From Candidatus Bathyarchaeota archaeon (GTDB taxonomy: Archaea > Thermoproteota > Bathyarchaeia > Bathyarchaeales > Bathycorpusculaceae): DNA of 64,000 nucleotides. Below, in pieces: positions 21,126-64,000 of the stretch (its first letter is position 1; each line of letters begins with the position of its first letter). The notes under the pieces were generated by a model. The model worked only from the letters and a program-made list of their open reading frames with translations, ran no database searches and was not told the origin of the DNA. The DNA lies in contig CAVTBV010000009.1 in assembly GCA_963733095.1 (NCBI GenBank), forward strand, positions 203,372-267,371. Direction: 5' to 3'. The translations under genes and the position numbers were made by a program.

Positions 21126-21213
21126 GCAGGGGTCTCCAAGCCAGGTCAACGGAGTAGGGCTTAGGACCCTATCGCGTAGGCGTTCGTGGGTTCGAATCCC
21201 ACCCCCTGCACCA
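21126..21213 (+). tRNA. tRNA-Leu(TAG)
   Basis: GCAGGGG / CCCCTGC-A-CCA; anticodon arm TAGGG-CTTAGGA-CCCTA; long variable arm; T arm GTGGG-TTCGAAT-CCCAC. Confidence 0.96.
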
Positions 21214-21280: not shown

Positions 21281-21358
21281 TTAAATATTCCTTTTTCTAA
21301 AGAACTTGAGCCCTTCAAAGTCGGTGATGTACTCAAAGCCTTCTTCTTTCCAACAAGC
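21281..21358 (-). pseudogene. Putative integrase C-terminal stub
   Basis: EEGFEYITDFEGLKFFRKRNI*, homologous to 56577-56663. The GFEY...FRKRK tail is as I recall it from archaeal Zn-ribbon tyrosine integrases. Confidence 0.6.
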
Positions 21359-26403: not shown

Positions 26404-26421
26404 ACAAACCCCTCTTAAGAT

Positions 26422-26481
26422 AAAAGAGGGATGTGCGGGTGACATCTCCACGGGTAGAGGGTTCAAATCCCACCTGCACAA
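26422..26481 (+). repeat. tRNA-T-arm att-like site (Leu-type)
   Basis: AAAAGAGGGATGTGCGGGTGACATCTCCACGGGTAGAGGGTTCAAATCCCACCTGCACAA. Confidence 0.88.
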
Positions 26482-26699
26482 CAATCGGACCACATCGCAA
26501 CGCCATTGCTCCGATAAACGGCTTTTTGAGCTGCTAAAGAACTTCTGTTGCCTAGAGCGCTCAAAGAAGAAAAAGATGGTGCAGCAATCAAACTACTCAA
26601 TAACCCATAAGGAAAACAAAACAGACAACTAAGATGCCCACCCCTCTTAGGATTCTCCCGATTAAGCGCTTGTTGCTTTAAACCTGCAGCGGAGTGCAA

Positions 26700-26979: not shown

Positions 26980-27197
26980 GTTTAAGCAAAACGTATGAGG
27001 GTACGTTCGGGTATAATTCCGCTAAAGTTTACATTCTCTAAAGATTCTGGCGCCACCAAATTCTGTGACCTACTCAAAGCCTGATTCTACAAAGCTACAG
27101 ATTTCTTTTTCCGTTTTAGCAACTTTTGAGTTGTAGCTTGTTTTGCCTTGGAATAATGCTTCTTCAAGCTGGACGCAAAAAGGAAAGTTTTGGACTT

Positions 27198-27665
27198 CTA
27201 TGCGAAGCTAACAAATTTTTTCGGTTCATTACTCGTTGCAAAAGTCCAGAAGTGAGCTGTGCATTTAATGATTCTAAAGAGAATCAGCCCTGGATTTTCC
27301 GGTGTTAATCCTGCCTTCTTTAGGAAGGGCCTGGCGTCAAGAAGCTTCTTTTTCATTTCTATATCATCAATGAATTCAACCGTGCCGGCTACCCTCATTT
27401 GCTGCATGTCTTTGCTTTTACTGTTAAAGAAGCACACTTCAACCTTAGGTGTAGCTTTCAACTGCTTATAGACATCTTTTCCAGCGGCAGAGCTGTAATA
27501 TAGACCTGACTTGTCAGCGTACCAAAGTTGAAATCCTCTGACCCGCGGTTGTCCACTATCTACGGTTGCTAAGAAGCCTATTGGATTTTCATTTACAAAC
27601 TTGATATACTCTTCTAATGTAGATGGTTGACTCATGTTGTTTTTCACTGAAAGATACTTTGGCAA
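27198..27665 (-). CDS. Pyridoxamine 5'-phosphate oxidase-like FMN-binding protein
   Basis: FLATVDSGQPRVR, KQLKATPKVEVCF and QMRVAG motifs. Confidence 0.88.
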   Translation of the reverse strand: MPKYLSVKNNMSQPSTLEEYIKFVNENPIGFLATVDSGQPRVRGFQLWYADKSGLYYSSAAGKDVYKQLKATPKVEVCFFNSKSKDMQQMRVAGTVEFIDDIEMKKKLLDARPFLKKAGLTPENPGLILFRIIKCTAHFWTFATSNEPKKFVSFA

Positions 27666-27724
27666 CAGTATATTTATTGTTATTAAATTATGAAAGTTAA
27701 TCTCTCAAAAAAGATTATTCTTTC

Positions 27725-27786
27725 AAAATAGGGAAGTGCGGGAACATCTCCACCGGCTTGAGGGTTTGAATCCCATCCCTGCACCA
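27725..27786 (+). repeat. tRNA-T-arm att-like site (Leu-type)
   Basis: AAAATAGGGAAGTGCGGGAACATCTCCACCGGCTTGAGGGTTTGAATCCCATCCCTGCACCA. Confidence 0.88.
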
Positions 27787-28065
27787 TTTTCGAACACTAT
27801 CACATGACTTAGAAACCAAGCAGTCAATAATGACTGCCAGAACCCTGACGAACCCATTCAAAGGCTGGGTTCTTCCAAACGCCTAAATGCTGGATAGGGC
27901 TTAACCATCTATTCCAGAGATTTGGTGTACCCAACTCTATTTATTTCGTCAAGAGTCAGCTAACGTTGTACAAATCGATAAAGCAACAATCAAAACGGTA
28001 AACTTCAATGGACAATTAGTCCATACAAACTAAATTGCAACCCAAATTTTCTTCTTTATTCATTA

Positions 28066-29784: not shown

Positions 29785-29966
29785 GATAACCTTTGATTAA
29801 TTATTAAGCCATCTTTTAAGTTAGTGTTAAAAAATAATTAATTAGAGCTTGATTAAACGTTCAAGTTAAGTACAACTTCAGAGATGCCGCTTGCATACTC
29901 TTCTGTCCGCCTAGAACTTCCAGTAATCAATACCATTGTATGTTATCCACCTTTAGACATATGCGC

Positions 29967-30034
29967 AAAGAAAAGAGGGAGTTTGGCGAGTGATACCTCG
30001 GCGCCTTGAGGGATTCGAATCCCGCTATCCACTA
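29967..30034 (+). repeat. tRNA-T-arm att-like site (Ala-like TCCAC end)
   Basis: AAAAGAGGGAGTTTGGCGAGTGATACCTCGGCGCCTTGAGGGATTCGAATCCCGCTATCCACTA. Confidence 0.8.
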
Positions 30035-30237
30035 TCGAGGAACCTTAGCTGTCGACACTTTTCACTTCTTGCTCTGAAGACCAAAAACGTTCAATGGATA
30101 ATTCACGCTTAAAAGATGCAGCTAAAACATTTTTATTCAATAGTTTTTTAAGGCGACACAACAATAACTTCTCATTCACTACGGGTACTGCCTACGGTCG
30201 GAAGTTAACAACTTGCCCTATATAGGATGAGAAAACC

Positions 30238-52994: not shown

Positions 52995-53053
52995 GATGGC
53001 AACATCCTTGATGTATATTTGGATGAGATGTTAAAACGGTTTTGGCGTTGTTT

Positions 53054-53154
53054 TTCCAAAATTTGGGCTCATGTCGGGAAAGTGGTCTTTCGCAATTAAT
53101 TTATCGTCAGAACATATAAAATAGCAATCTATGCGTCCGATTCTTGGAAGTCTT
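53054..53154 (+). repeat. Degenerate copy D of the AGGCCT-bounded repeat
   Basis: TTCCAAAATTTGGGCTCATG...TTATCGTCAGAACATATAAAA. Confidence 0.55.
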
Positions 53155-53530
53155 AGAGTTTTTTCCGCGCTAAAACAAAGACATGTATGTTCATTAAAGC
53201 GAAACCGAACATCCAAAATTCAATCGCATAGAGCATAGAATGGAAATAGGCAGGGACACATCCTGAGCTAAGAAATATCAGAGCAAGAATGCCTAAGATT
53301 TTTTCGTTGATACGCAAGTTGCTTCAGTATTCTTCTGCTGTTTCTTCGAAAATAAGGCTTATGAATTGAGAATATTGATACTAAATAGACTAGTTGCATT
53401 GATTTGTGTAGAGCTTCTGCTTTAATGCATTAAGAAGCGCAAAGTCTTCAAAGTTTGTCAGTTCTATCGGACTTTGTTACGTGTTAGTTCGATTGCAAAA
53501 CGACGTAGAATTAGTGAAAAAGATGTTGGA

Positions 53531-53592
53531 GTGGACTGGGGGTATTTGAACTCCTCGTAAAGTGGAGATATGACCCGCGATCCCCCTTTTTT
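53531..53592 (-). repeat. tRNA-T-arm att-like site (Ala-type)
   Basis: Plus strand GTGGACTGGGGGTATTTGAACTCCTCGTAAAGTGGAGATATGACCCGCGATCCCCCTTTTTT. Confidence 0.88.
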
Positions 53593-53657
53593 CTTGTTAC
53601 GCCATATTTTTAGGCTAATTTGTTTCATTATCCAGTTTTTGTGCATAACCGGTTTAC

Positions 53658-55088
53658 TTAATCTGTTGGCTTCTTATTGAGCAAATACTTATGGATAGCC
53701 TGCGCGGCCCTCTTTCCTGAACCCATAGCGTTGATGACTGTGGCTTCCCCTGTCATGATATCTCCACCCGTGAAAACACCGGGTAGTTTGGTTTCTCCAG
53801 TTTCTGGGTCGGCGACAATAGTGCCTTGTTTTGTTGTTTGGAGACCTTTGGTGACAGTCTGAATTACTGGATTGGGAGTTCGTCCAATGGCCACGATGAC
53901 TGTATCTGCTTTAGTGATATTTTCTGAGCCTTTGATTGGGACTGGTCTTCGCCTGCCTGAAGCATCTGGTTCTCCGAGTTCCATATTTACCAGTTCAATA
54001 GCGGCTACCCTGCCTTGCTCGTCGCCTATAAATCTGGTTGGAGTGGAAAGGAACTTGAAGTTAATGCCTTCTTCTTCGGCGTTAAGTAACTCTTCTTGCC
54101 TGGCAGGTATCTCTTCTTTTGATCTTCGATAGATTATGTTCACTTCATCTGCACCGCTTCTTATGGCACAGCGCGCTGCGTCCATCGCTACGTTTCCCCC
54201 GCCGATGACTGCCACTTTTTTTCCTACTTTAATGGGTGTATCATAAAGTGGAAATTGGTATGCTTTCATGAGGTTTACTCGTATTAGAAACTCGTTAGCT
54301 GAGTAGATGCCTGCCAAGTTTTCGCCAGGAATATTTAGAAAGAGTGGTAGCCCCGCACCGGATCCAATGAAGACTGCTTCGAATCCTTTTTTGAATAGTT
54401 CTTCAATCGTAAATGTTCTCCCCGCCAGGATGTCCGTGTGAAGTTCAACGCCTAATTTTTTAATGTAATCAACTTCTGCCTGGACAATTCTTTTCGGCAA
54501 CCTGAACTCAGGGATGCCGTAGATTAGAACACCGCCAGCATTGTGAAGTGCCTCGAAAACTACCACTTTGTGACCCAGTTTTGCTAGTTCAGCTGCCACT
54601 GTCAAGCCAGCTGGTCCTGAACCTATGACTGCAACTTTTCCTTCTAATGGTTTTGGTAAGGCAGGCATTTCCACGCCTCTTTCCAATTCGAAGTCAGCGA
54701 CGAACCTTTCAAGCCTACCGATCGAAACAGCTTGGTCTTTTTTTCTCAATATACAGAATTTTTGACATTGCTCTTCTTGGGGACAGACCCTACCACATAT
54801 GGCTGGAAGAGTATTTTTCTCTTTAATCTTTTGGCTGCCTTCGTTAAACTTTTTTTCTTTAATGAGCTTGATAAAGGCTGGAATGTCTACGCCTACAGGA
54901 CAGCCTTTTACGCATTGCGGTTTTGGACAACTAAGGCATCTATTTGCTTCCCGCGATGCTTCTGCTTCTGAATATCCAATTGCGACTTCGTCGAAGCTCT
55001 GTATTCGGGTTTTTGGAGGTTGTTTGCGCATTGGAACAGCGTTTTTGTTGGGTTGAGCTGGTGTTTTGTCTTTCAAGTTTTCTTGCAT
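53658..55088 (-). CDS. NfnB/SudA (NADPH-dependent glutamate synthase beta-like) large subunit
   Basis: RCLSC...CVKGCP, CGRVCPQEEQC, GSGPAGL, YGIPEFRLPK and GGGNVAMD motifs. Confidence 0.93.
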   Translation of the reverse strand: MQENLKDKTPAQPNKNAVPMRKQPPKTRIQSFDEVAIGYSEAEASREANRCLSCPKPQCVKGCPVGVDIPAFIKLIKEKKFNEGSQKIKEKNTLPAICGRVCPQEEQCQKFCILRKKDQAVSIGRLERFVADFELERGVEMPALPKPLEGKVAVIGSGPAGLTVAAELAKLGHKVVVFEALHNAGGVLIYGIPEFRLPKRIVQAEVDYIKKLGVELHTDILAGRTFTIEELFKKGFEAVFIGSGAGLPLFLNIPGENLAGIYSANEFLIRVNLMKAYQFPLYDTPIKVGKKVAVIGGGNVAMDAARCAIRSGADEVNIIYRRSKEEIPARQEELLNAEEEGINFKFLSTPTRFIGDEQGRVAAIELVNMELGEPDASGRRRPVPIKGSENITKADTVIVAIGRTPNPVIQTVTKGLQTTKQGTIVADPETGETKLPGVFTGGDIMTGEATVINAMGSGKRAAQAIHKYLLNKKPTD

Positions 55089-56032
55089 TCACAAGTAGCT
55101 CCTTCACCTTTTTCACGGAAGGCTAAAGCTGAATGCTCCTCCTCGGGATATTCCCTTAATCGACCCATTAGTTCTTTGAAGTCCGTTTTGTGTGCATCAA
55201 ACTCGGGTCCGTCAATGCAGGCAAACTTGGTTTTACCACCAACGGTTACTCTACATGAGCCGCACATGCCCATCCCATCAACCATTATTGGGTTTAAGCT
55301 GACTATTGTTTTAATGCCGTAAGGTCGTGTGACCTCTGCTGTTGCCCTCATCATAGGCACTGGACCTATAGCGTATACTATGCCAAACGAGTAGTTCCTC
55401 TCAATAAGTGATCTTAGAACATCAGTAACAAACCCTTTCTGTCCTTTTGACCCATCATCTGTTGAGATGTAGAATTTATCAGAAACTGCTTTCATTTCAT
55501 CCTCAAGAATTAGAAGTTCTTTGTTCCTTGCTCCGAGAATAGAAACAACTTTGTTTCCTGCAGCTTTAAGGGCCTTTGCAATAGGGTGAGCCGCAGCAGT
55601 GCCTACTCCTCCGCAAACGACCGCGACCACACCATAATTCTGTATGCAGCTGGGATTCCCTAATGGACCAGCAACGTTCAAGATTTCATCTCCGACGTTT
55701 AGAGCAGCTAGCTTTTTGGTTGATACCCCCAGGTGTTGGAAAATCAAAGTAATCGTTCCAGAACTGCCTTGTGCACTTTTCCATTGGAAGAGTGTAAGAG
55801 GGATTCTTTCTCCTTCTTCATCTATCCTAAGTATTACAAACTGGCCTGCTTGGGCTTTCTCAGCTATTTCTGGCGCAACTAACGTAATTTCTGTAACTTG
55901 GGGATTAAGGGTGCGTTTGCGTATTATGGGATGTCCTTTCCTGTCCAGTGGAAATGAATTCCTTGATTCAATATTTTGAATCGTAGGCGTGTCTTCAACC
56001 TTCTATTCTTTTATCTTTTTGTTTTTGAGCAT
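55073..56032 (-). CDS. NfnA/SudB FAD/2Fe-2S subunit; start ambiguous (in-frame TAG at 56003-56005)
   Basis: AQAGQFVILRIDEEGERIPLT lies in frame upstream of the called ORF; GPLG, TDDGS, MVDGMGMCGSCRV and CIDGPEFD motifs. Confidence 0.85.
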
Positions 56033-56093
56033 TTATGTTTCGCTCTAAGAAAGGATGTGGGGAAATAATTTTTTGTGTAATCTTTAATTTGAA

Positions 56094-56321
56094 TCAGGTG
56101 TGGACTGCTACTTCGGTTCGAATTACAGCATTGATTTGGCTAACAGCCTCGCGGATGCGCCTTAAATCATCAAGGTCTTTTGCTTCTGCATAGAGTATTA
56201 CGTCATATGATCCCATTACTGAATGGGTAATTTTGACGCCTTCAATTTTTTGGGTTTCTTGTACAGTGAGAAAAGCCTGTCCTTTCTTGGTTCGAATAAG
56301 CATATAAAAAGGAACGACCAC
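56094..56321 (-). CDS. Lrp/AsnC ligand-binding domain protein
   Basis: HSVMGSYDVILYAEA pattern. Confidence 0.85.
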   Translation of the reverse strand: MVVPFYMLIRTKKGQAFLTVQETQKIEGVKITHSVMGSYDVILYAEAKDLDDLRRIREAVSQINAVIRTEVAVHT

Positions 56322-56576
56322 TGATTTTCTCCTCAGAAATAATTATAAATAAACTAAAATGTAAAGTTTGTTGTTTGCACCCCGCAAGTAGCTGAGGAAA
56401 AAGCGAGAAATCTCAGTGTTGTGGAACTAATAGAATTCCCATTTTCTCTATTCTTATCTACATAAACCACCTAAGACTTTCTGAATTTAGAAGTATATTA
56501 TAATCATAGTAAAAAGCACCATTTCTACTGCGACTTCACCAGCAAAACCCCTTCTTTTTCTAATTAAAAAAACTCT

Positions 56577-56663
56577 GAACAAGAGGCTTGCCACCTTATA
56601 GAATCCGGTTTTGAGTTTGTTTGTGATTTTGGTGATAACCGGCTCTTTAGAAAGCGGAAATAA
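56577..56663 (+). pseudogene. Putative integrase C-terminal stub
   Basis: EQEACHLIESGFEFVCDFGDNRLFRKRK*, ending about 45 bp before an att-like site. Confidence 0.65.
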
Positions 56664-56707
56664 AGGTGTTTTCATAAGGACCGGGGTGTATCAAAAAGTA
56701 TGTTTAA

Positions 56708-56770
56708 GTGGACTGGGAGGATTTGAATCCCTCGTAAAGTGGAGATGTCACTAGCAGAATTCCTTTATTT
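56708..56770 (-). repeat. tRNA-T-arm att-like site (Ala-type)
   Basis: GTGGACTGGGAGGATTTGAATCCCTCGTAAAGTGGAGATGTCACTAGCAGAATTCCTTT; closely similar to 53531. Confidence 0.88.
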
Positions 56771-56775
56771 TCTCT

Positions 56776-56945
56776 TTGTGTGGGTGTGGGACCTAAAAAC
56801 TGCACACTACACTGGAAGCTTTGGGAATGGTTCCTTTTTCAGTTTGGGTCGTTTTCCTATTGTTGTTTGAGTGTGGGAAGAGGGTTTAGCCCACACATTC
56901 AACATGGATGCTATGTTGGAGTGTGTGGGTGTGAGTGTGGTTGTA
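56776..56945 (+). repeat. GTGTG/CACAC-rich non-coding element, copy 2
   Basis: TTGTGTGGGTGTGGGACCTAAA...ACACTACACTG...AGTGTGGGAAGAG...CCCACACA.TCAACAT...GTGTGG..GTGAGTGT. Confidence 0.8.
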
Positions 56946-57206
56946 TGTTGGCGACTCTATTCCTGTATCCTGTGCCTGTTTTTCTTTCTGACCTAAACTA
57001 CGGTTTTGTAAGTTCATTTAGCGATCAAACAATCGGGGGATCAAACTGTGACTAATCGCAGAAAGATGAACTGTCCACTTGGAGGCGAAGCATAAAGCGA
57101 TAGTCGAAAGTAATGCAAATGTCGAGCAGATTGCCTCTAAACTTCAGAAGACGCCTTTGAGTTGTGATAGTGAAATGTCAACGCTTAGGCTTGTAGTAAT
57201 AGCGAT

Positions 57207-57272
57207 GGGTCGGCGGGGCTGGGATTCGACCCCTCTACCAATGGAGATATCACCCGCATTCTCACTTTTTTT
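57207..57272 (-). repeat. tRNA-T-arm att-like site (CCCCGCCG end)
   Basis: CGGCGGGGCTGGGATTCGACCCCTCTACCAATGGAGATATCACCCGCATTCTCACTTTTTT. Confidence 0.85.
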
Positions 57273-57457
57273 CAAGGTTTTTTTCCGCTGTCTTTTCCGC
57301 TAATCGTTTACGGAAATTACTTAGCTGGCAAGAGGCTTCTTTTTTTCGCAAAAAGCTTGCATTATTTTTTAGAATGTTGACTATTCTGCATTTGTTTGTT
57401 TTATTTGTCACATGTTTTTGTTGGTTTATAGCAAGTTTTAAGTTAACTTCGTTATAG

Positions 57458-60169
57458 ATGTGGTCGGCAGAAAGAAAATGGAGAAAAAAACAAATGAAAA
57501 TTTCTGGAAAAAAAAATGCGACAATAGTGATCGTAATATTATTGGCTTTTTCAATCACAGCGTCAATGACATTGATATCAAGTGTTAACGCACATTACCC
57601 CCCGATGAATATTCCAACGTTCTCTTTCATTAGCGTTTCACCAGATCCAATAGGCATAGGACAAACAGCTCGCGTTAACTTCTGGCTCGGTCAACCTCCA
57701 CCAACAGCAAATGGACAATACGGTGATAGATGGACAAATATGACTGTGAAAGTTACGCATCCTGGTGGAACAACTGAGACTTTAGGACCTTTTACTTCCG
57801 ATGATACAGGAGGAGCCCACACAAGTTATACGCCTATTGTACTGGGAAATTATACTTTCCAGTTCATCTTTGGTGGACAAACATTGGCAGGCAACAATCT
57901 TGCTCCTGGAGCTCCCTCGTCTGGACCTGGCTCTAACATAAATATCGGCGATTATTTCCAACCCAGCTCAAGCAACGTATTTACACTAACAGTACAACAG
58001 GAAGCAATCCAATATCCAACGGAAGCTCCACTTCCAACAGGCTACTGGACACGCCCAATTTATGCTGAAAACAACAACTGGTACTCAATTGCCGGGAACT
58101 GGCTTGGTTTTGGTCAGACATCATTTGCTAACACTGGAATGTACAGTGTTGACGTAAACTATAATCCGTATACAACCGCGCCCAACACTGCTCATATTTT
58201 ATGGACGAAACCTGAAGCTTTCGGTGGTACAATCGGTGGAGAATTCGGCGGCAGCGAGCAAGGCAACTTCTTTTCAACTTCGCAGTACGAGCCAAAGTTT
58301 GCGCCAATAATCATGAATGGTATTCTCTACTATACCCAGTACCCAGGAAGTGCTGCTAATCCAGCAGGATGGGTAGCCGCAGACTTACACACAGGACAAA
58401 CATTATGGACAAAGAACACAACTGAACTTTTAAGATGCGGTCAAATACTCCAAATGACTACACCCAATCAATACGGAGCCCTCGCATACCTCTGGAGCCA
58501 GCCGTTGGGTCCTAGGGTTGTAAACGAAAACTTCGGCGCAAGCGTCGGCGGATCTTTAGAGATGTGGGATGCAATGACTGGAAACTACATATTAAAGATA
58601 ACTGGCGTTCCTATTGCAGTAAATGGCCCTGGTACTGGCATAGTACTTTCAAAAGATGATCGTGGCGATTTAATAGGTTATTATGTGGATTCGAGCAACC
58701 CGTTCGCACCAAAGCTGAACATGTGGAACTCGACACGATGCATTAACCTAGCCGTTCCGAACTCTTACGGTGGACCAAATGTTGCAGATAATTGGTATTG
58801 GAGACCTCCTCAAAACGCAGAAATAAACTTCACCTTAGGAATACAATGGTCGGCTCCAATCGCTACAAGTGTTTCAGGCTCGCCAATCGTAGATTTCGCT
58901 AATGGCCTCTACGGTCTCGGAATTACTTATGTCAGCAGCGGAGTAGTGTATATGTCAGAATACACTATGGGCGGAGGACTATTCTACCAACCCGGATGGA
59001 CTATTGAAGCAGGCTACAGCGCAACAGACGGCTCACAACTGTGGATAACTAACCGAACTCAAATACCCTACACTCTCATATCTGCGGGTGCCGGTACCTA
59101 TTTCGCCGGCGACGGATATTACGTACAATTCACCCAGAATGCATTGTCCATCTCATGCTTCAGCCTAACAACAGGAAACAAAGTATGGGGACCAACTACA
59201 CTTCCAAACGCTAGTCCTTTTGATTCTCTTGGAGGCAACTCAGTCATCGCCAACGGCACAATTTACCTATGGGCTTACGGAGGAGACGTTTACGCATACA
59301 ACCTTGCCGATGGAACTCTCAAATGGCATTACAGCACACCAAGCGGCGGCTTAGAGTCTCCCTATGGTGTCGAGCCATTATGGACTTTCACGGTAGGTAC
59401 CGTTGCTGACGGCAAACTCTTCGTTCCTGAAGGCCATATGTACAGTCCACCACTTTTCCACCAAGCACAGCAGCTCGCCCTCAATATTACTGACGGCAGT
59501 GTGGTTTGGAGTATTGATGCTTTCGACGTTACTAGCGGTCCAGCTATTGTAGATGGCATTATGACAACGTTAAACGCTTACGACAACCAAATATATGCCT
59601 GGGGTAAAGGACCAACCGTTACCACTGTTTCAGCGCCAAACATTGGGGTTACAACTGCCACACCAATTACGATAAGCGGAACTGTTATCGACATCTCTGC
59701 AGGTACAAAACAACAAGCGCAAGCAGCAAACTTCCCCAAGGGTGTTCCTGCGGTTTCTGACGCAAGCCAAAGTGGCTGGATGGAATATGTTTATATGCAG
59801 CAACCTTGCCCAGCAAACGTAACCGGCGTTCCAGTTTCTCTCGAAGTTCTTGATTCAAACGGCAACTATAGACAAATCGGCTCTACATCAAGTGATGGCA
59901 GCGGCGCATTCCGCTTCACGTGGACACCTGATATAATAGGCGATTACACGATCGTTGCGAACTTTGCAGGTTCTGAATCGTACTATCCTTCCTCTGCAGA
60001 AGCATTCTTTACTGCCAGCGAACCAGCGTCGACATCAGCACCAACCGTTGCACCTGTAACAGACATAGCAACAATGTCAGGCCTAACTATTGGAATCGCT
60101 GCAGCAACAATTGCCATAATCATCGCTATAGCAATAGTCGGGATTCTTCTACTCAAAAAAAAGCCATAA
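57458..60169 (+). CDS. PQQ-binding-like beta-propeller surface protein
   Basis: Paralog of 2698-5259; likely start ATG at 57493. Confidence 0.85.
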   Translation: MWSAERKWRKKQMKISGKKNATIVIVILLAFSITASMTLISSVNAHYPPMNIPTFSFISVSPDPIGIGQTARVNFWLGQPPPTANGQYGDRWTNMTVKVTHPGGTTETLGPFTSDDTGGAHTSYTPIVLGNYTFQFIFGGQTLAGNNLAPGAPSSGPGSNINIGDYFQPSSSNVFTLTVQQEAIQYPTEAPLPTGYWTRPIYAENNNWYSIAGNWLGFGQTSFANTGMYSVDVNYNPYTTAPNTAHILWTKPEAFGGTIGGEFGGSEQGNFFSTSQYEPKFAPIIMNGILYYTQYPGSAANPAGWVAADLHTGQTLWTKNTTELLRCGQILQMTTPNQYGALAYLWSQPLGPRVVNENFGASVGGSLEMWDAMTGNYILKITGVPIAVNGPGTGIVLSKDDRGDLIGYYVDSSNPFAPKLNMWNSTRCINLAVPNSYGGPNVADNWYWRPPQNAEINFTLGIQWSAPIATSVSGSPIVDFANGLYGLGITYVSSGVVYMSEYTMGGGLFYQPGWTIEAGYSATDGSQLWITNRTQIPYTLISAGAGTYFAGDGYYVQFTQNALSISCFSLTTGNKVWGPTTLPNASPFDSLGGNSVIANGTIYLWAYGGDVYAYNLADGTLKWHYSTPSGGLESPYGVEPLWTFTVGTVADGKLFVPEGHMYSPPLFHQAQQLALNITDGSVVWSIDAFDVTSGPAIVDGIMTTLNAYDNQIYAWGKGPTVTTVSAPNIGVTTATPITISGTVIDISAGTKQQAQAANFPKGVPAVSDASQSGWMEYVYMQQPCPANVTGVPVSLEVLDSNGNYRQIGSTSSDGSGAFRFTWTPDIIGDYTIVANFAGSESYYPSSAEAFFTASEPASTSAPTVAPVTDIATMSGLTIGIAAATIAIIIAIAIVGILLLKKKP

Positions 60170-60391
60170 AACCAAAAAAATATTTTCCCCTTTTTTAGTT
60201 TTTAAAAATAACAATGCTTGAGAAAAGAAGGGGCTGAGCCTGCTGTGACAACTATTCATGAAATAGCTGTAGATTAAAAGAAGATTTTTGCATTTTCCCT
60301 CTTTCTCCTATTTCGGTTCAGGAGCCTCAGCAAACCCAACTTCATTCTTGCAAAATAGTTGGCTTGTTTTCATTTACCTCCCAGTCCTAAA

Positions 60392-60454
60392 TTGGACCAG
60401 GCTTGATTTGAACCCTTGTCATATCCGTGACTTCACTCGCATATTCCTTTTTTT
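60392..60454 (-). repeat. tRNA-T-arm att-like site (GGTCCA end)
   Basis: TTGGACCAGGCTTGATTTGAACCCTTGTCATATCCGTGACTTCACTCGCATATTCCTTTTTTT. Confidence 0.75.
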
Positions 60455-60545
60455 AATCAAGTGTAATTGGTTCGAAACACATAATCTAAAAAAGCAGAAA
60501 GCAATAAACTTATAATCCAAGTCAAACCAATAAAAGCCGAAGTAA

Positions 60546-60767
60546 GTGGATGAAATGGACAGAAAATTAAAAACTATACCCGAACCGAAAAAGGGAACGC
60601 GCACCGTTTTTGTTTCTAAAACGTTGCCAGTAATAAAAAGCAAGGGCGGTAATACTACTTATCTATGTGGTAATTGTGGAGCAAAGCTAGGCGAGACTAT
60701 AATCGAAGGAAAATTCAAGAATGTTGTGTTAAAGTGTCCAACTTGTAACCTCTACAACGACATATAG
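60546..60767 (+). CDS. Small zinc-ribbon protein
   Basis: YLCGNCG...KCPTC..YN pattern. Confidence 0.7.
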   Translation: MDEMDRKLKTIPEPKKGTRTVFVSKTLPVIKSKGGNTTYLCGNCGAKLGETIIEGKFKNVVLKCPTCNLYNDI

Positions 60768-61066
60768 TTTAGGTGACGATTTTCACAAAGAGAAGAATTC
60801 TGCTCAAGTGACAGAGACTTAACTGACCCGCCGAAAAGACTTTGTAACCGCTGCGCCTTCATGGTTCCAACTTCTCTGCTGGAACAGGGAACATAGGCAA
60901 TTCTACTTTTCCATCTTTGTTCCCACTAGTTAATTCCAATTGTTTAACTGCTCACCCATTTCCTCTCTTAAATGCTGAGTTTTAATTTTATCCATCGTTA
61001 TCTAACACGATAGGGAAAAAACCAGCTATTCAGGGCCAATAAAGAGCTAGCTATTTTACTTAAATC

Positions 61067-61128
61067 GGTGCAGGGGCGGGATTCGAACCCTCTGTAAATG
61101 GAGAAATCACCCGCACAACCCCTTTTTC
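61067..61128 (-). repeat. tRNA-T-arm att-like site (Leu-type)
   Basis: GGTGCAGGGGCGGGATTCGAACCCTCTGTAAATGGAGAAATCACCCGCACAACCCCTTTTTC. Confidence 0.9.
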
Positions 61129-61164
61129 TTTAAACTAGACGAAAAATAGCAGGGAAATGAAAAC

Positions 61165-61296
61165 ATGTTGGAAGAAAAAACAGTAAAATGCCCCGTATGC
61201 GGCAGTCAGAAGTCATACAAGGACGGCATAAGGTACACTCATTCAAAGGAAATTCAGTGTTACCAATGCCGTGAATGCAGCCACAGGTTCTCATAA
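61165..61296 (+). CDS. 43 aa Zn-ribbon ORF (InsA-like / putative integrase N-terminal stub)
   Basis: MLEEKTVKCPVCGSQKSYKDGIRYTHSKEIQCYQCRECSHRFS*. Confidence 0.65.
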   Translation: MLEEKTVKCPVCGSQKSYKDGIRYTHSKEIQCYQCRECSHRFS

Positions 61297-61360
61297 CGGT
61301 GGGGAGCGATTTGGACTATGATTGGGTGAAGATGTCGCCTCTAACCCATTTTTTCATTAT

Positions 61361-61963
61361 TTAATGAAGAGGCTTTCGGCGTCTTCTATAAAGCATTAAA
61401 CCCACACTTATTCCGAAAACTACTGAGATGATAGAAACAACAGCTATGACGGAAAAAGACGAAGAAGGCTGTGGTTTTTCTATTAGCTTTTCGGTTGAAA
61501 ATGTAACTGTTGCATTACTATGGGAATTATCATGGGTATTAGCATAAACGGTCAATGTATGATTACCGAAAGGAATCTGTTGAAACGTTGCGCTAATTGA
61601 GGCGTTTAATGAGTTTACATACTGCGTCTGATGACCAAAAAGCTGGTGAATACCGTCTTGCCAATCCGCCTGGTAATAAACACTATCAATTGTCCAAAAA
61701 TACGAAGCCACATCTACTGCCAATGTAAAGTTGCTTGCTTGAATTACGGTTTGGTTTTCTGGCGTTATGATTTCAACAATTGGTGAAACATGTGCTTCAC
61801 GGATTGCAGGCGGTTGAATAACAGGTGAACTTGTATCCCATTGAGTAAACGAAACAATGGGTTCTATTTGGCTTTTGACTGTTGAAAACGAAGCCGTGCT
61901 TGAAAGGCAAAGAATACAAAGAATTGTTACGGATAGAAGCTTAGCTTTCTTCATGTTTATCAT
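61361..61963 (-). CDS. Exported Ig-like protein with C-terminal TM anchor
   Basis: Signal peptide, PIVEIITPENQT...GNHTLTVYAN, TM followed by RRRRK. Confidence 0.8.
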   Translation of the reverse strand: MINMKKAKLLSVTILCILCLSSTASFSTVKSQIEPIVSFTQWDTSSPVIQPPAIREAHVSPIVEIITPENQTVIQASNFTLAVDVASYFWTIDSVYYQADWQDGIHQLFGHQTQYVNSLNASISATFQQIPFGNHTLTVYANTHDNSHSNATVTFSTEKLIEKPQPSSSFSVIAVVSIISVVFGISVGLMLYRRRRKPLH

Positions 61964-62085
61964 AGAACTTTAAGGTAGAGTTGCTAATTACTCTCCCCAA
62001 AGAACAGCATGTTCCTCTAAAAGAACAGCAAAAGTTTCTTGTCTATCCTGGAATGATGCATTCTGCAGGATATAGAAGCTACACC

Positions 62086-62164
62086 CCCTGGCGTTTTGAG
62101 CAGTCGTTACATCGAACCCTCCACTCGATGGAGATGTCACCCGCGTTCCCCTCTTTTCTTTTTT
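62086..62164 (-). repeat. att-like site, conserved left arm with non-tRNA right arm
   Basis: CCCTGGCGTTTTGAGCAGTCGTTACATCGAACCCTCCACTCGATGGAGATGTCACCCGCGTTCCCCTCTTTT. Confidence 0.85.
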
Positions 62165-62245
62165 GTTGAAAATGACCGAGGTGAGGTAGCTTGTTTGGAG
62201 CAGATGTCGCCAACATAAACTCTTTGCCATTCTAGATGCTGATAC

Positions 62246-63730
62246 TCATAGTGAACCAGCGAGTTTCGTTCCTGTGTGCAATACTTCACTCACCAGAATC
62301 TCAAAGTCTTCACGTCGACTTCGATGATTTGTGTTAGCCACTCTAAGAACATACTTCCCATTTATGACGGTTCCAGTTAAAACGGCGATGCCGCGTTCCT
62401 GTAAATCAATAGCAATTTCCTTGTTAACTTCATCGAGTAACATATCAGTCAAATCAGATGAGACAAAACGGAAGCAAACTACGTTTAGCGAAATCGGCGC
62501 CGAAAGTTCCAGTCCCGGAGAAGCTTTGATAAGTTCGCCCAAATAGAAAGCCTGATCGATGTTCTGTTGAATTATCCTTGCATATTTCTTTGTGCCGTGC
62601 TCCTTAATAGAAATCCATGCCTTAAGCGCACGAAATCCCCGAGAAAGCTCATAACTGTAATCGCTAAACCATGGCAAATCGCCGCCGGCAACACCGTGTT
62701 CTTCTTTTCCGTGAGCAAGGTATTTAGGAGTTAAACAGAAAGCCTTTCGATGCTGCTTTTCTTCCCTCACTAAAATGCATCCAATTTCGTAAGGCATATA
62801 CATCCACTTATGCAAGTCTAATGCCAACGAGTCAGCCAACTCCATTCCCGCAACAGTTTTTTCCGCTTTGGGCGACAGGCGAGCCCAGGCGCCAAATGCG
62901 CCGTCAACATGGAACCAAAGTTTTTCTCTTCGGCATATATTAGCCAGAGCCTTAAGATCGTCCACGCTTCCAGTGTTCGTTGTGCCGGCAGCTCCAATAA
63001 TGCAGAATGGAGAAAAACCGCTTTCGCGGTCTCTTGTGATAGCTGCTTCAAGTTTTGCGATATCAATTTGGAACTGATTATTAACTGGCAAAAATCGCAG
63101 TGCCTCACTTCCCAGTCCAAGCAGCTCCACAGCTTTCTGAATTGAACTGTGGGCTTCTTCGCTAGCGTAGAGCACCATATTCTTAGGTGCCATTTGAAGT
63201 CCCTTCCTGCGGAGGTCAAAACCTGCTTTCGTGTTGCGGGCAACTGTTAGTCCGATTAGGTTAGAGGCTGAGCAACCGCTGGTTAATACTCCGCTCGCTG
63301 AGGCTGGAAACTGGAGCATTTCCTTAATCCAGTCGAGAACTTGCTTTTCAACGTGTACAGCAATGTGGTCTCCCCCTCCATTGTTTGTGTTCATTGTAGC
63401 CGCCAAAAGTTCAGAATAAGCCCCCATGATGGTTCCAGTTCCAAGTATCCAACCCCAGAAGCGCGGGTGGATGTTTCCCATCGGGTACGGAAGCACTTTT
63501 TCAGTAAATTCCTTGTAGACCTCTTCGGGTCGTTCAGGATTTACAGGCACAGGTGCTGTGAACTGAGCTTTTACTTGTTCAGGAATATTTTGCCAGACAG
63601 GACGCTCTCGAACTGATTTCAAGTAATCTACCACGTCATCAAGCATCTTGTGACCAAGCTTTCGCATTGATTCCCAATTATCAGGGTCCAGCGTTTCTTC
63701 AGACACTGCATTATTGATTTCTGTTTTCAC
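62246..63730 (-). CDS. PLP-dependent group II (aromatic-L-amino-acid-like) decarboxylase
   Basis: HPRFWG, AHSSIQKA, AGTTNTG, HVDGAFG, DLHKW and SRGFRALK motifs. Confidence 0.92.
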   Translation of the reverse strand: MKTEINNAVSEETLDPDNWESMRKLGHKMLDDVVDYLKSVRERPVWQNIPEQVKAQFTAPVPVNPERPEEVYKEFTEKVLPYPMGNIHPRFWGWILGTGTIMGAYSELLAATMNTNNGGGDHIAVHVEKQVLDWIKEMLQFPASASGVLTSGCSASNLIGLTVARNTKAGFDLRRKGLQMAPKNMVLYASEEAHSSIQKAVELLGLGSEALRFLPVNNQFQIDIAKLEAAITRDRESGFSPFCIIGAAGTTNTGSVDDLKALANICRREKLWFHVDGAFGAWARLSPKAEKTVAGMELADSLALDLHKWMYMPYEIGCILVREEKQHRKAFCLTPKYLAHGKEEHGVAGGDLPWFSDYSYELSRGFRALKAWISIKEHGTKKYARIIQQNIDQAFYLGELIKASPGLELSAPISLNVVCFRFVSSDLTDMLLDEVNKEIAIDLQERGIAVLTGTVINGKYVLRVANTNHRSRREDFEILVSEVLHTGTKLAGSL

Positions 63731-63866
63731 TCTGAATGCCTCTCATGAATCCTATCGAATACTTGATTTATTTATTGCTATAAAATTGCGAATTGATGCT
63801 GATAAACTGAAGTGACTGTTCTAAGACAGAAATTTCTGACAAACCTTATATTATTTTGATGTTGAA

Positions 63867-63930
63867 GTGGACTGGGGGGATTTGAACCCAGGACAGCAAT
63901 GAGGATTCACTCGCAAAATTCCTCTTTTTT
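63867..63930 (-). repeat. tRNA-T-arm att-like site (Ala-type)
   Basis: GTGGACTGGGGGGATTTGAACCCAGGACAGCAATGAGGATTCACTCGCAAAATTCCTCTTTTTT. Confidence 0.88.
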
Positions 63931-63957
63931 GTGTGTACTTGGCATAGGTGAACAAAC

Positions 63958-64000
63958 ATGGAACGCAAAATCATAAATTGCCCGCATTGCGGCAAAACTA
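63958..64000 (+). CDS. Start of a Zn-ribbon protein (possibly an integrase), runs off the window
   Basis: AGGTGA RBS, MERKIINCPHCGKT; same position relative to the att-like site as the ORF at 61165. Confidence 0.55.
   Translation, partial: MERKIINCPHCGKT

Follow-up and report, generated by a model that had tools for sequence, protein, structure and literature searches.

Organisation of the locus

The DNA examined here, referred to as the window, comprises 64,000 nucleotides (nt) from a Candidatus Bathyarchaeota archaeon (assembly GCA_963733095.1, contig CAVTBV010000009.1; G000:C9:203372-267371), and contig C9 ends at the last base of the window. Its outer part, from 53.5 to 64 kb, harbors eight directly oriented attachment (att)-like sites within 10.5 kb, separated by one- or two-gene intervals that mostly lack an integrase gene. 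C-terminal remnants of tyrosine integrases are found beside such sites and beside a tRNA gene, and two small open reading frames (ORFs) encoding Zn ribbons begin just inside two of the sites. In a preliminary description of this stretch, the Zn-ribbon ORFs and the C-terminal remnants were taken for the two ends of integrase genes. The positions given there for two C-terminal stubs and two Zn-ribbon starts were all borne out by the translations and by the site positions, whereas the evolutionary model built on them is revised below.

att-like sites composed of a tRNA-derived core and an element arm

Each att-like site joins a conserved arm of about 45 nt to a core of 26-35 nt that duplicates the 3' end of a tRNA (Ala-TGC, Leu-TAG, or another). 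The core extends from inside the T-stem to the discriminator and sometimes a few bases beyond; identity to real tRNAs begins only inside the T-stem. On the integrase-sense strand, the arm reads GGAGATNTCACCCGCA..CCCCTTTTTT. On the opposite strand, an A-rich stretch comes first and the conserved block TGCGGGTGAYATCTCCA second; a T-arm-like sequence, GGGTTCRAATCC, then leads into the 3' acceptor strand of a tRNA. The window contains 14 copies of the T-loop-like motif GGRTTYRAAYCC, where 2.0 would be expected, and none of 100 shuffles reached that number. An att profile built from nine window sites was used with nhmmer against the genome (E < 0.01) and retrieved 43 arm-bearing sites, the nine included. 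These sites are clustered and differ in the tRNA whose 3' end is matched by the acceptor part. Three IMG/VR contigs also carry the arm with a core, in one case directly adjoining an integrase gene; the other 47 of the 50 hits obtained with a 16-mer of the arm failed the profile and were probably chance matches. Because it is common to sites with different cores, and is found with a core in the IMG/VR contigs as well, the arm is considered to be the element's own.

The cores of several sites can be assigned to a given tRNA. The attR-type junction at 63861-63935 (minus strand; nhmmer E = 1.6e-13) comprises a tRNA-Ala(TGC) core, 9 nt of 3' flank, and the arm, and shares 97% identity, over 32-33 nt, with the 3' end of the tRNA-Ala(TGC) located on another contig of the same genome (G000:C16:178287-178361). 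The Ala-type cores of the junctions at 56703-56776 (minus strand; E = 1.6e-12; 94% identity over 18 nt to the tRNA-Ala(TGC) 3' end and flank) and 53525-53592 (minus strand; E = 1.6e-9; 95% identity over 21 nt to the tRNA-Ala end) are decayed versions of this core. Genome G001, whose integrase is 99% identical to an integrase fragment at the end of C16, harbors a 17.4-kb region bounded by tRNA-Ala on one side and by an Ala core with its arm on the other. A second target is represented by the junction at 61062-61138 (minus strand; E = 3e-16), whose core resembles the end of tRNA-Leu. To its left lies a 73-amino-acid (aa) Zn-ribbon gene (60546-60767, plus strand), which is 81-88% identical in 7 genomes of the genus and which, in G202 (L150; G002-series), stands directly beside an intact tRNA-Leu(TAG)/tRNA-Thr pair. 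This gene is a native chromosomal neighbour of tRNA-Leu(TAG) and not cargo. Since the site is thus preceded by the original flank and reads flank, core, arm (B'-core-arm), it corresponds to the attR of an integration into tRNA-Leu(TAG).

The near-perfect Ala core, the bounded region of G001, and the native flank in G202 agree with the earlier proposal of att sites that stem from the 3' ends of tRNAs, and the sites are recombination junctions of classical tRNA integration. The bounds of the window's own Ala array are those that we infer, since its tRNA sits on another contig, C16. Public metagenome contigs of related strains switch flank exactly at core/arm boundaries (63873-63889, 61099, and 63856), and they differ in the length of the G-run in the Ala core. 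Their joints were rejected as proof of excision, being either short-sided (22-27 letters, flagged as unreliable) or from sequencing runs of only 90-95% likeness.

Another candidate explanation, in which the sites would be halves of a split or permuted tRNA or else a gene for a tRNA-like RNA, was also rejected. Arm and acceptor part do not covary, the identity to tRNAs sets in only at the T-stem, and Rfam gave no tRNA match at the sites: only the two real tRNAs of the window reach the gathering score of RF00005, and no match to the tRNA covariance model was obtained in 53000-64000 up to E = 10. As the conserved block stays unchanged whatever the acceptor part, it is not a pairing partner of the latter.

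Full-length Zn-ribbon integrases and their C-terminal remnants

The full-length integrase paralogs encoded by this genome are 377-433 aa long. They start with CPxCGS..KDG..QR(W/Y)xCRxCGYRFS and end with ..GFEYVCE..KLFRKRK, a tail motif that is present about twenty times in the genome. A tblastn census revealed 22 integrase-like places, eight of which span at least 900 nt, the remainder being fragments of either end. Six integrase ORFs (full-length paralogs and the C16-end fragment) were scanned against Pfam, with matches listed up to E = 0.1. All six matched the tyrosine recombinase domain PF00589, five of them above the gathering score (42-84 bits for a cut-off of 27.1) and the C14 copy with 26.6 bits; the integrase of locus L012 scored 86.5 bits. 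The catalytic R, HxxR, H/W, and Y are legible in the paralog translations (..TGMRCGEA.., ..FHTFRHWKAT.., and ..LGHKS..T.LYTQL..). The architecture that the preliminary description had ascribed to Bathyarchaeia integrases, with a Zn-ribbon start and a FRKRK tail, is therefore real and includes a PF00589 domain, as seen in the paralogs of this genome. A scan of one genome per species yielded 445 relatives; the best 80 are nearly all titled Bathyarchaeia or Bathyarchaeota, and many of these relatives share the Zn-ribbon start. Two reports that deal with Bathyarchaeia virus integrases and a provirus make no mention, in their available parts, of this integrase family, of the arm, or of the small ORF (PMC10848311, PMC11697101).

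The intact integrase genes have a characteristic position relative to tRNAs. Their stop codon adjoins an antisense tRNA at C14, at C5, and at the C16 end, and tRNA-Ala(TGC) lies 50-60 nt past the integrase stop in 8 of the 8 closest foreign loci scanned. Half of the 16 integrase-type tails of the genome are followed by an antisense T-loop-like motif that starts 38-88 nt after the stop, and four of these eight tails are stubs of 28-62 codons; by comparison, such a motif occurs in 137 of 5000 random 130-nt windows (2.7%). Directly upstream of the full-length integrases are other element genes, and not an att site or an arm. Inspection by eye of the spacer between integrase stop and core showed no consistent arm-type repeats.

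Three C-terminal stubs of such integrases are present in the window. The first (56568-56663, plus strand) has 31 codons and a stop and reads KNSEQEACHLIESGFEFVCDFGDNRLFRKRK*. Its stop ends at 56663, 44 nt before the sequence ..AAGTGGACTGGG.. at about 56706-56708, and the att site that follows begins ..AAGTGGACTGGGAGGATTTGAATCC... The stub matches integrase tails of the same genome (tblastn E = 4.6e-11, 6.9e-9, 3.3e-8, and up to 2e-7), with 67% identity to residues 159-188 of the C16-end integrase; Pfam gave no match for this 30-aa stub on its own, which is too short and lies outside the catalytic residues. The second (21281-21358, minus strand; ..EEGFEYITDFEGLKFFRKRNI*) also matches the paralog tails and reads toward the end of tRNA-Leu(TAG), its stop codon lying 67 nt from the tRNA 3' end. 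Both stubs stand beside a core or a tRNA because, in an intact copy, a few tens of bases normally separate the integrase stop from the end of the tRNA. The third (27022-27207, minus strand) is about 530 nt from the nearest att site. The 'fixed positions' first attributed to such stubs thus amount to a narrow range of distances, with no single distance and with the third stub standing apart. The layout at 56568-56776, with a C-stub, a duplicated core, and an arm, recurs at C14:23.5 kb and in locus L020, and is as expected where two elements have integrated in tandem; it can be described as attP-like or as a tandem junction. The C-stubs at 56568-56663 and 21281-21358 are remnants of decayed integrases.

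Probable free-standing Zn-ribbon genes inside the arm

The two Zn-ribbon ORFs of the window both begin about 25-35 nt after the T-tract of a site, with a spacing of about 30 nt at 61062-61138 for the first and of about 25 nt at 63861-63935 for the second. The first is a 43-aa single-ribbon ORF (61165-61296, plus strand; MLEEKTVKCPVCGSQKSYKDGIRYTHSKEIQCYQCRECSHRFS*), homologous to the integrase N-terminal domain. It aligns with residues 44-81 of the integrase at C16:18679 (47% identity, E = 6.5e-5), and this match, with that of the C-stub to integrase tails, upholds the original claim that both kinds of stub are integrase-related. In Pfam, it matched Zn-ribbon models only, below the cut-off. 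With NF050000, the NCBIfam model for the N-terminal Zn-binding domain of IS1/IS1595 (28-bit cut-off), the window ORF scored 25.9 bits and its relatives 32.9, 29.8, and 35.2 bits.

The second is the start of a two-ribbon ORF (63958-64000, plus strand), of which the first 14 codons, opening with an ATG and reading MERKIINCPHCGKT.., precede the contig end that cuts it. Its missing part was found on no other contig end of the genome; one public metagenome contig (run X1) extends 68 letters beyond this point. One candidate was that the C9 end holds the 5' end of the C16-end integrase; it was rejected, as the C16 fragment is 97-99% identical to the G001/L012 integrase, whose N-terminus is unlike MERKIINCPHCG. 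Positions 1-2999 of L012 have no counterpart in this genome.

The nature of the two-ribbon ORF can be deduced from its relatives. When 201 genomes of the same order were searched with it, 107 gave a match. All of the 11 listed matches that cover both ribbons are open frames of 62-129 aa, and a recombinase domain was fused to none of them. Matches restricted to the second ribbon are either full-length integrases (about 340-500 aa) or short frames, 47 of the 150 listed rows being shorter than 140 aa by hand count. When 5.8 billion proteins were searched for longer relatives, the sole matches were five proteins of 126-165 aa whose frames continue across a core and arm. In the loci that were fetched, two-ribbon ORFs are 72-79 aa long from their ATG and end 0-9 codons past ..RFS, with an arm upstream in about 8 of 11. 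Single-ribbon ORFs have start codons, are 42-56 aa long, and end at ..RFS; an arm motif lies upstream in 9 of 11 loci, a GGAGGTG-like motif often precedes them, and a second arm-like motif, CCCGCAA..CCCCTTTTT, is often found 10-40 nt downstream. The first codons of the ORFs that follow an arm are alike (MEEKT.., MLEEKT.., MERKI..).

The short ORFs are also conserved as proteins. A 37-codon domain aligns without gaps in 21 of them, with a median pN (nonsynonymous) of 0.27 and a median pS (synonymous) of 0.84 over 210 pairs, the synonymous sites being saturated; the same domain in 22 full-length integrases (231 pairs) gives 0.39 and 0.83. Copies are found in many genera and in several families of the order. 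On this comparative basis, the Zn-ribbon ORFs are read as a family of complete small genes (43-79 aa) encoding a conserved protein, probably as free-standing copies of the integrase N-terminal domain. Such an ORF is the first gene inside the arm in many elements. At the orthologous Leu attR of three relatives from the genus, there is an intact 43-aa ortholog in one, a two-ribbon ORF in another, and neither in the third, and the gene is therefore an optional part of the element.

An accretion array of tRNA-targeting elements

The region is an ordinary array formed by accretion of integrative elements that target tRNAs, and few such arrays have been described from this lineage. It probably represents the outer part of an integration hot spot made by classical (non-suicidal) tyrosine integrases that target tRNAs, the Zn-ribbon 'starts' being complete small genes. 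The homology of stubs and ORFs to integrases, their geometry relative to the sites, the tRNA origin of the cores, the native flank of the Leu site, and the conservation of the short ORFs are all directly observed. One feature is modestly new, namely the conserved free-standing Zn-ribbon gene at the att arm.

A number of observations sit uneasily with this reading. Just 4 of the 43 sites of the genome have a Zn-ribbon ORF after the arm, and these comprise the two window ORFs, a frameshifted copy at C9:109.8 kb, and a degenerate one at C10:14.5 kb (14521); the gene is therefore optional or often lost. A C-terminal tail before an arm-bearing site is rarer still, with 2 sites of the 43. The window copy of the 43-aa ORF is altered at conserved positions (QRY to QCY and CGYRFS to CSHRFS), and it shares 77% protein but 84% DNA identity with its intact, 43-aa ortholog in G205 (L146); because conserved residues have changed and protein identity falls below DNA identity, this copy may be decaying. 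The purifying selection seen between copies could partly predate their separation from integrases. In this genome and in G001, a small ORF is immediately followed by another core and arm, an arrangement unexpected under simple accretion. The native 3' flank of tRNA-Leu, together with the Leu-type core (60546-61138), lies 40 kb from the tRNA at 21126-21213 and in inverted orientation; either an inversion between att sites or an assembly error is therefore needed. The near-identical G001 homologue of the C16-end integrase differs from MERKIINCPHCG at its N-terminus, and a join between the C9 end and the tRNA-Ala end of C16 is no more than putative. Finally, the roles given below to the arm (binding site, terminator) and to the small protein (integrase regulator) are ones that we infer by analogy.

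Other explanations of the array have to be weighed. The preliminary description envisaged a minimal att-integrase-att parent, from which modules arose when cargo took the place of the integrase interior and left its two ends. The geometry fits, with a Zn-ribbon start just inside the arm and an integrase tail just before the core; the first codons of the ORFs after the arm are similar, and L066, a locus of another Bathyarchaeia metagenome-assembled genome (MAG), comes nearest to such a parent, its arm, 72-aa ORF, integrase, and tRNA following one another within about 1.75 kb. Yet an N-type ORF and a C-stub coexist in none of the eight intervals between 53.5 and 64 kb. In many genomes, the N-type ORFs terminate just past ..RFS, and they are conserved as short, complete ORFs, the full-length integrases beside tRNAs have other genes and not an arm directly upstream, and the 73-aa 'cargo' turned out to be native chromosome. 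This parent model is accordingly abandoned as quite unlikely. An SSV-type, 'suicidal' integration, in which an attP inside the integrase gene just after the Zn ribbon would split it into int(N) and int(C), would account for the small ORFs that run straight into a core (in the window, at G000:C9:109.6 kb, in G001, and in L140) and for the presence of Zn-ribbon-less integrases beside arm-bearing sites (C13:87109, L053, and L172). We regard it as extremely improbable: an antisense T-loop-like motif was found within 124 nt after ..RFS in 0 of 68 full-length integrase genes, and the six integrase ORFs scanned matched PF00589, with PF16795 absent from their matches (E up to 0.1). Furthermore, all three stop codons are found after ..RFS and before the core, intact integrases adjoin tRNAs in the integrated state, and the integrases without Zn ribbon are in the opposite orientation to the site.

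The arrays could also be cassette arrays, in which modules that have no integrase but carry an arm and a tRNA-like core are moved in trans, much as on an integron platform. The eight directly oriented sites within 10.5 kb and their largely integrase-free intervals are compatible with this view, as are the recurrence of a mini-unit of about 300 bp (arm, small ORF, core plus arm) and the flanks that switch at core/arm boundaries in metagenome contigs of related strains. On the other hand, the best-conserved 'module' is the native tRNA-Leu flank, adjoining cores are of different tRNA types, and gene orientation is mixed. The metagenome contigs contained no empty site, no circle, and no reliable excision junction, their joints being the short-sided ones (22-27 letters) mentioned above, and the integron integrase models were far from reached (TIGR02249, 70 bits for a cut-off of 265; NF011946, 41 for 435). 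As an account of the whole array, a cassette platform has little probability, although such movement is possible for some units, above all for the arm/small ORF/core unit of about 300 bp. Somewhat less implausible, yet still improbable, is the idea that the Zn-ribbon ORFs are non-functional remnants, descended from one ancestral truncation (arm, Zn ribbon, core) that spread as a passenger, so that their apparent conservation would stem from recent spread and from an origin in functional integrases. The frameshifted and degenerate copies (C9:109.8 kb; C10:14521), the altered consensus residues of the window copy, and the scarcity of the ORF among the arms of the genome all speak for it. Against it, frames, starts, and stops have been kept although pS is saturated, pN is below that of full-length integrases, copies occur across many genera and several families, and there are two length classes that have each retained their own architecture. 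Should the small ORFs nevertheless turn out to be inert, nothing more than an ordinary, decayed hot spot of integration would be left.

Proposed mechanism and comparison with known systems

Under the hot-spot reading, the integrase has three parts, namely an N-terminal IS1/IS1595-like Zn ribbon, a core-binding and PF00589 catalytic part, and the ..GFEYVCE..KLFRKRK tail. In the integrated state, its gene lies at the tRNA-proximal end of the element and reads toward the tRNA. As elements pile up and decay, the last integrase codons may persist beside the tRNA or beside a duplicated core. The Zn ribbon may bind the arm, the T-tract of which could also terminate transcription, and the free-standing copy of the ribbon might modulate the integrase, by setting the direction of recombination or by competing with it, as IS1 InsA and lambda Xis suggest by analogy. 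The mixture of core types within one array could have arisen as newcomers integrated into att junctions already present and as these junctions recombined to give inversions. A bolder version, in which the free-standing Zn ribbon acts in trans as a switch on the arm, the arm-ORF-core mini-unit is mobilized in trans, and the arrays serve as tRNA-anchored platforms for gene capture and rearrangement, is speculative and appears rather unlikely.

Precedents exist for a small protein that shares the DNA-binding domain of a recombinase. InsA of IS1 carries the N-terminal Zn-finger DNA-binding domain of the transposase and regulates transposition; in phage lambda, the N-terminal domain of Int binds the arm sites, and Xis offers the comparison for directionality. 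Common to these cases and the present one is a short protein that corresponds to the DNA-binding domain of the recombinase only and is encoded at the end of the element, and relatives of the small ORF score above the NF050000 cut-off. The presumed partner is here a tyrosine recombinase and not a DDE transposase, however, the protein is encoded by a separate gene and is not a frameshift product, and its function is proposed by likeness.

Among archaeal integrases, for which a scheme of type I and type II and tandem integration have been described in the available text of one source (PMC8371274), the classical type II, or pNOB8-type, is the closest in behaviour: the integrase remains intact after integration and adjoins the tRNA, a direct repeat of the tRNA 3' end marks the bounds of the element, and the site can be re-used, giving rise to arrays. 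That elements with tyrosine recombinases form arrays is also stated in the part available of a second source (PMC6563490). By contrast with classical type II systems, the present family has an IS1/IS1595-like Zn-ribbon N-terminus, an arm of about 45 nt that is shared across different tRNA targets, and a free-standing Zn-ribbon gene in this arm. In a limited literature search, which covered its sources in part, no description of this N-terminus, of the arm, or of the small Zn-ribbon gene was found. The SSV-type, pTN3, and pT26-2 suicidal integrases likewise leave integrase fragments beside tRNA-derived att sites in an archaeon, and, as far as the same source extends, they carry a Phage_integr_3 domain (PF16795) (PMC8371274). 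They differ from the integrases considered here, which have PF00589 and not PF16795, have no att inside the gene (0 of 68), and are accompanied by N-type ORFs with their own stops. The same available text indicates that archaeal integrases require no essential helper or directionality factor (PMC8371274).

Integrons, with IntI and attC arrays, share with this region the close and directly oriented sites around one- or two-gene intervals. By sequence, however, the sites are here copies of tRNA ends with an arm, and not attC hairpins, and one interval or more consists of native chromosome.

Bathyarchaeia are abundant sediment archaea that have hardly been cultured, and we know of no genetic tools for them. 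The data presented here describe one main integrase family of this group, with its target rule (tRNA 3' ends), its shared arm, and a candidate accessory protein, and thereby offer a concrete route to the annotation of integrated elements and genomic islands in Bathyarchaeia MAGs. Arrays of att sites help to account for contig breaks and rearrangements at such places, and the parts have potential use in site-specific integration. If a separate small gene for a recombinase domain does reside at the att arm, it would be a new case in the control of archaeal tyrosine integrases.

Other junctions, interval contents, and related elements

The remaining junctions of the outer array lie on the minus strand as well. 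Those at 57205-57280 (E = 3.5e-13), which has a core of another tRNA type, and at 60384-60465 (E = 7.5e-11) consist of a core and an arm, and so does the degenerate one at 61288-61364 (E = 8.1e-8), which starts at the stop codon of the 43-aa ORF. A variant is found at 62112-62168 (62060-62168 with its conserved extension; E = 8.2e-7). It comprises the arm and half a T-arm, ..GAGGGTTCGA, which is followed, in place of the tRNA acceptor part, by another conserved stretch of about 45 nt (..GCAACGGCTGCCCAAATTGCCAGGGGGTGTAGCTTCTATATCC). There are five such variants in all, the others being at G000:C13:28780, C7:85276, C13:19694, and C3:3608. A second accretion array extends from 21 to 32 kb, with tRNA-Leu(TAG) (21126-21213, plus strand) as its attL and with Leu-type junctions of core and arm at 26412-26488 (plus strand), 27714-27790, and 29966-30041 (E = 3.4e-16, 8.4e-12, and 2.6e-11, respectively).

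The intervals of the outer array have diverse contents. The first, which ends in the C-stub at 56568-56663, holds two oxidoreductase subunits and an AsnC-type protein; its left boundary is the junction at 53525-53592, past whose arm there is no Zn-ribbon ORF. It is followed by a 430-nt repeat interval and by the interval encoding a 903-aa secreted propeller protein. The fourth to eighth intervals contain, in this order, the native 73-aa gene, the 43-aa ORF, a secreted protein of 200 aa, a pyridoxal phosphate (PLP) decarboxylase, and the ORF that the contig end truncates. Within the second interval, about 320 nt inside the arm of 56703-56776 (56748-57068) are 76-80% identical to five places in G210 and to G000:C8:32652-32877; this repeat has GT-rich tracts resembling those upstream of the integrase at G000:C2:61078. 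The 903-aa protein (57458-60169) combines pyrroloquinoline quinone (PQQ)-propeller and immunoglobulin (Ig)-like features with a C-terminal membrane anchor, and its family has more than ten partial matches in the genome and many in relatives.

In other genomes, the genes that follow a two-ribbon ORF recur in two combinations, with names assigned by eye: an AbrB/SpoVT-like and PIN-like gene pair in L107, L108, and L114, and a winged-helix-like protein of 214-262 aa in L103, L105, and L106. An integrase subfamily of 294-303 aa that lacks the Zn ribbon is represented by G000:C13:87109-88017 and by the IMG/VR locus L172:1545-2429 (minus strand). About 35 nt separate the start codon of these integrases from the acceptor side of a core and arm, and their orientation to the site is opposite to that of the Zn-ribbon integrases. 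One further tRNA target deserves mention: at about G000:C14:10350-10480 (antisense), a tRNA that by eye is Leu-TAA-like and contains an insertion or intron was not called by ARAGORN. This tRNA, which is also present at L066:2330-2450, is the target of integration by a full-length integrase.

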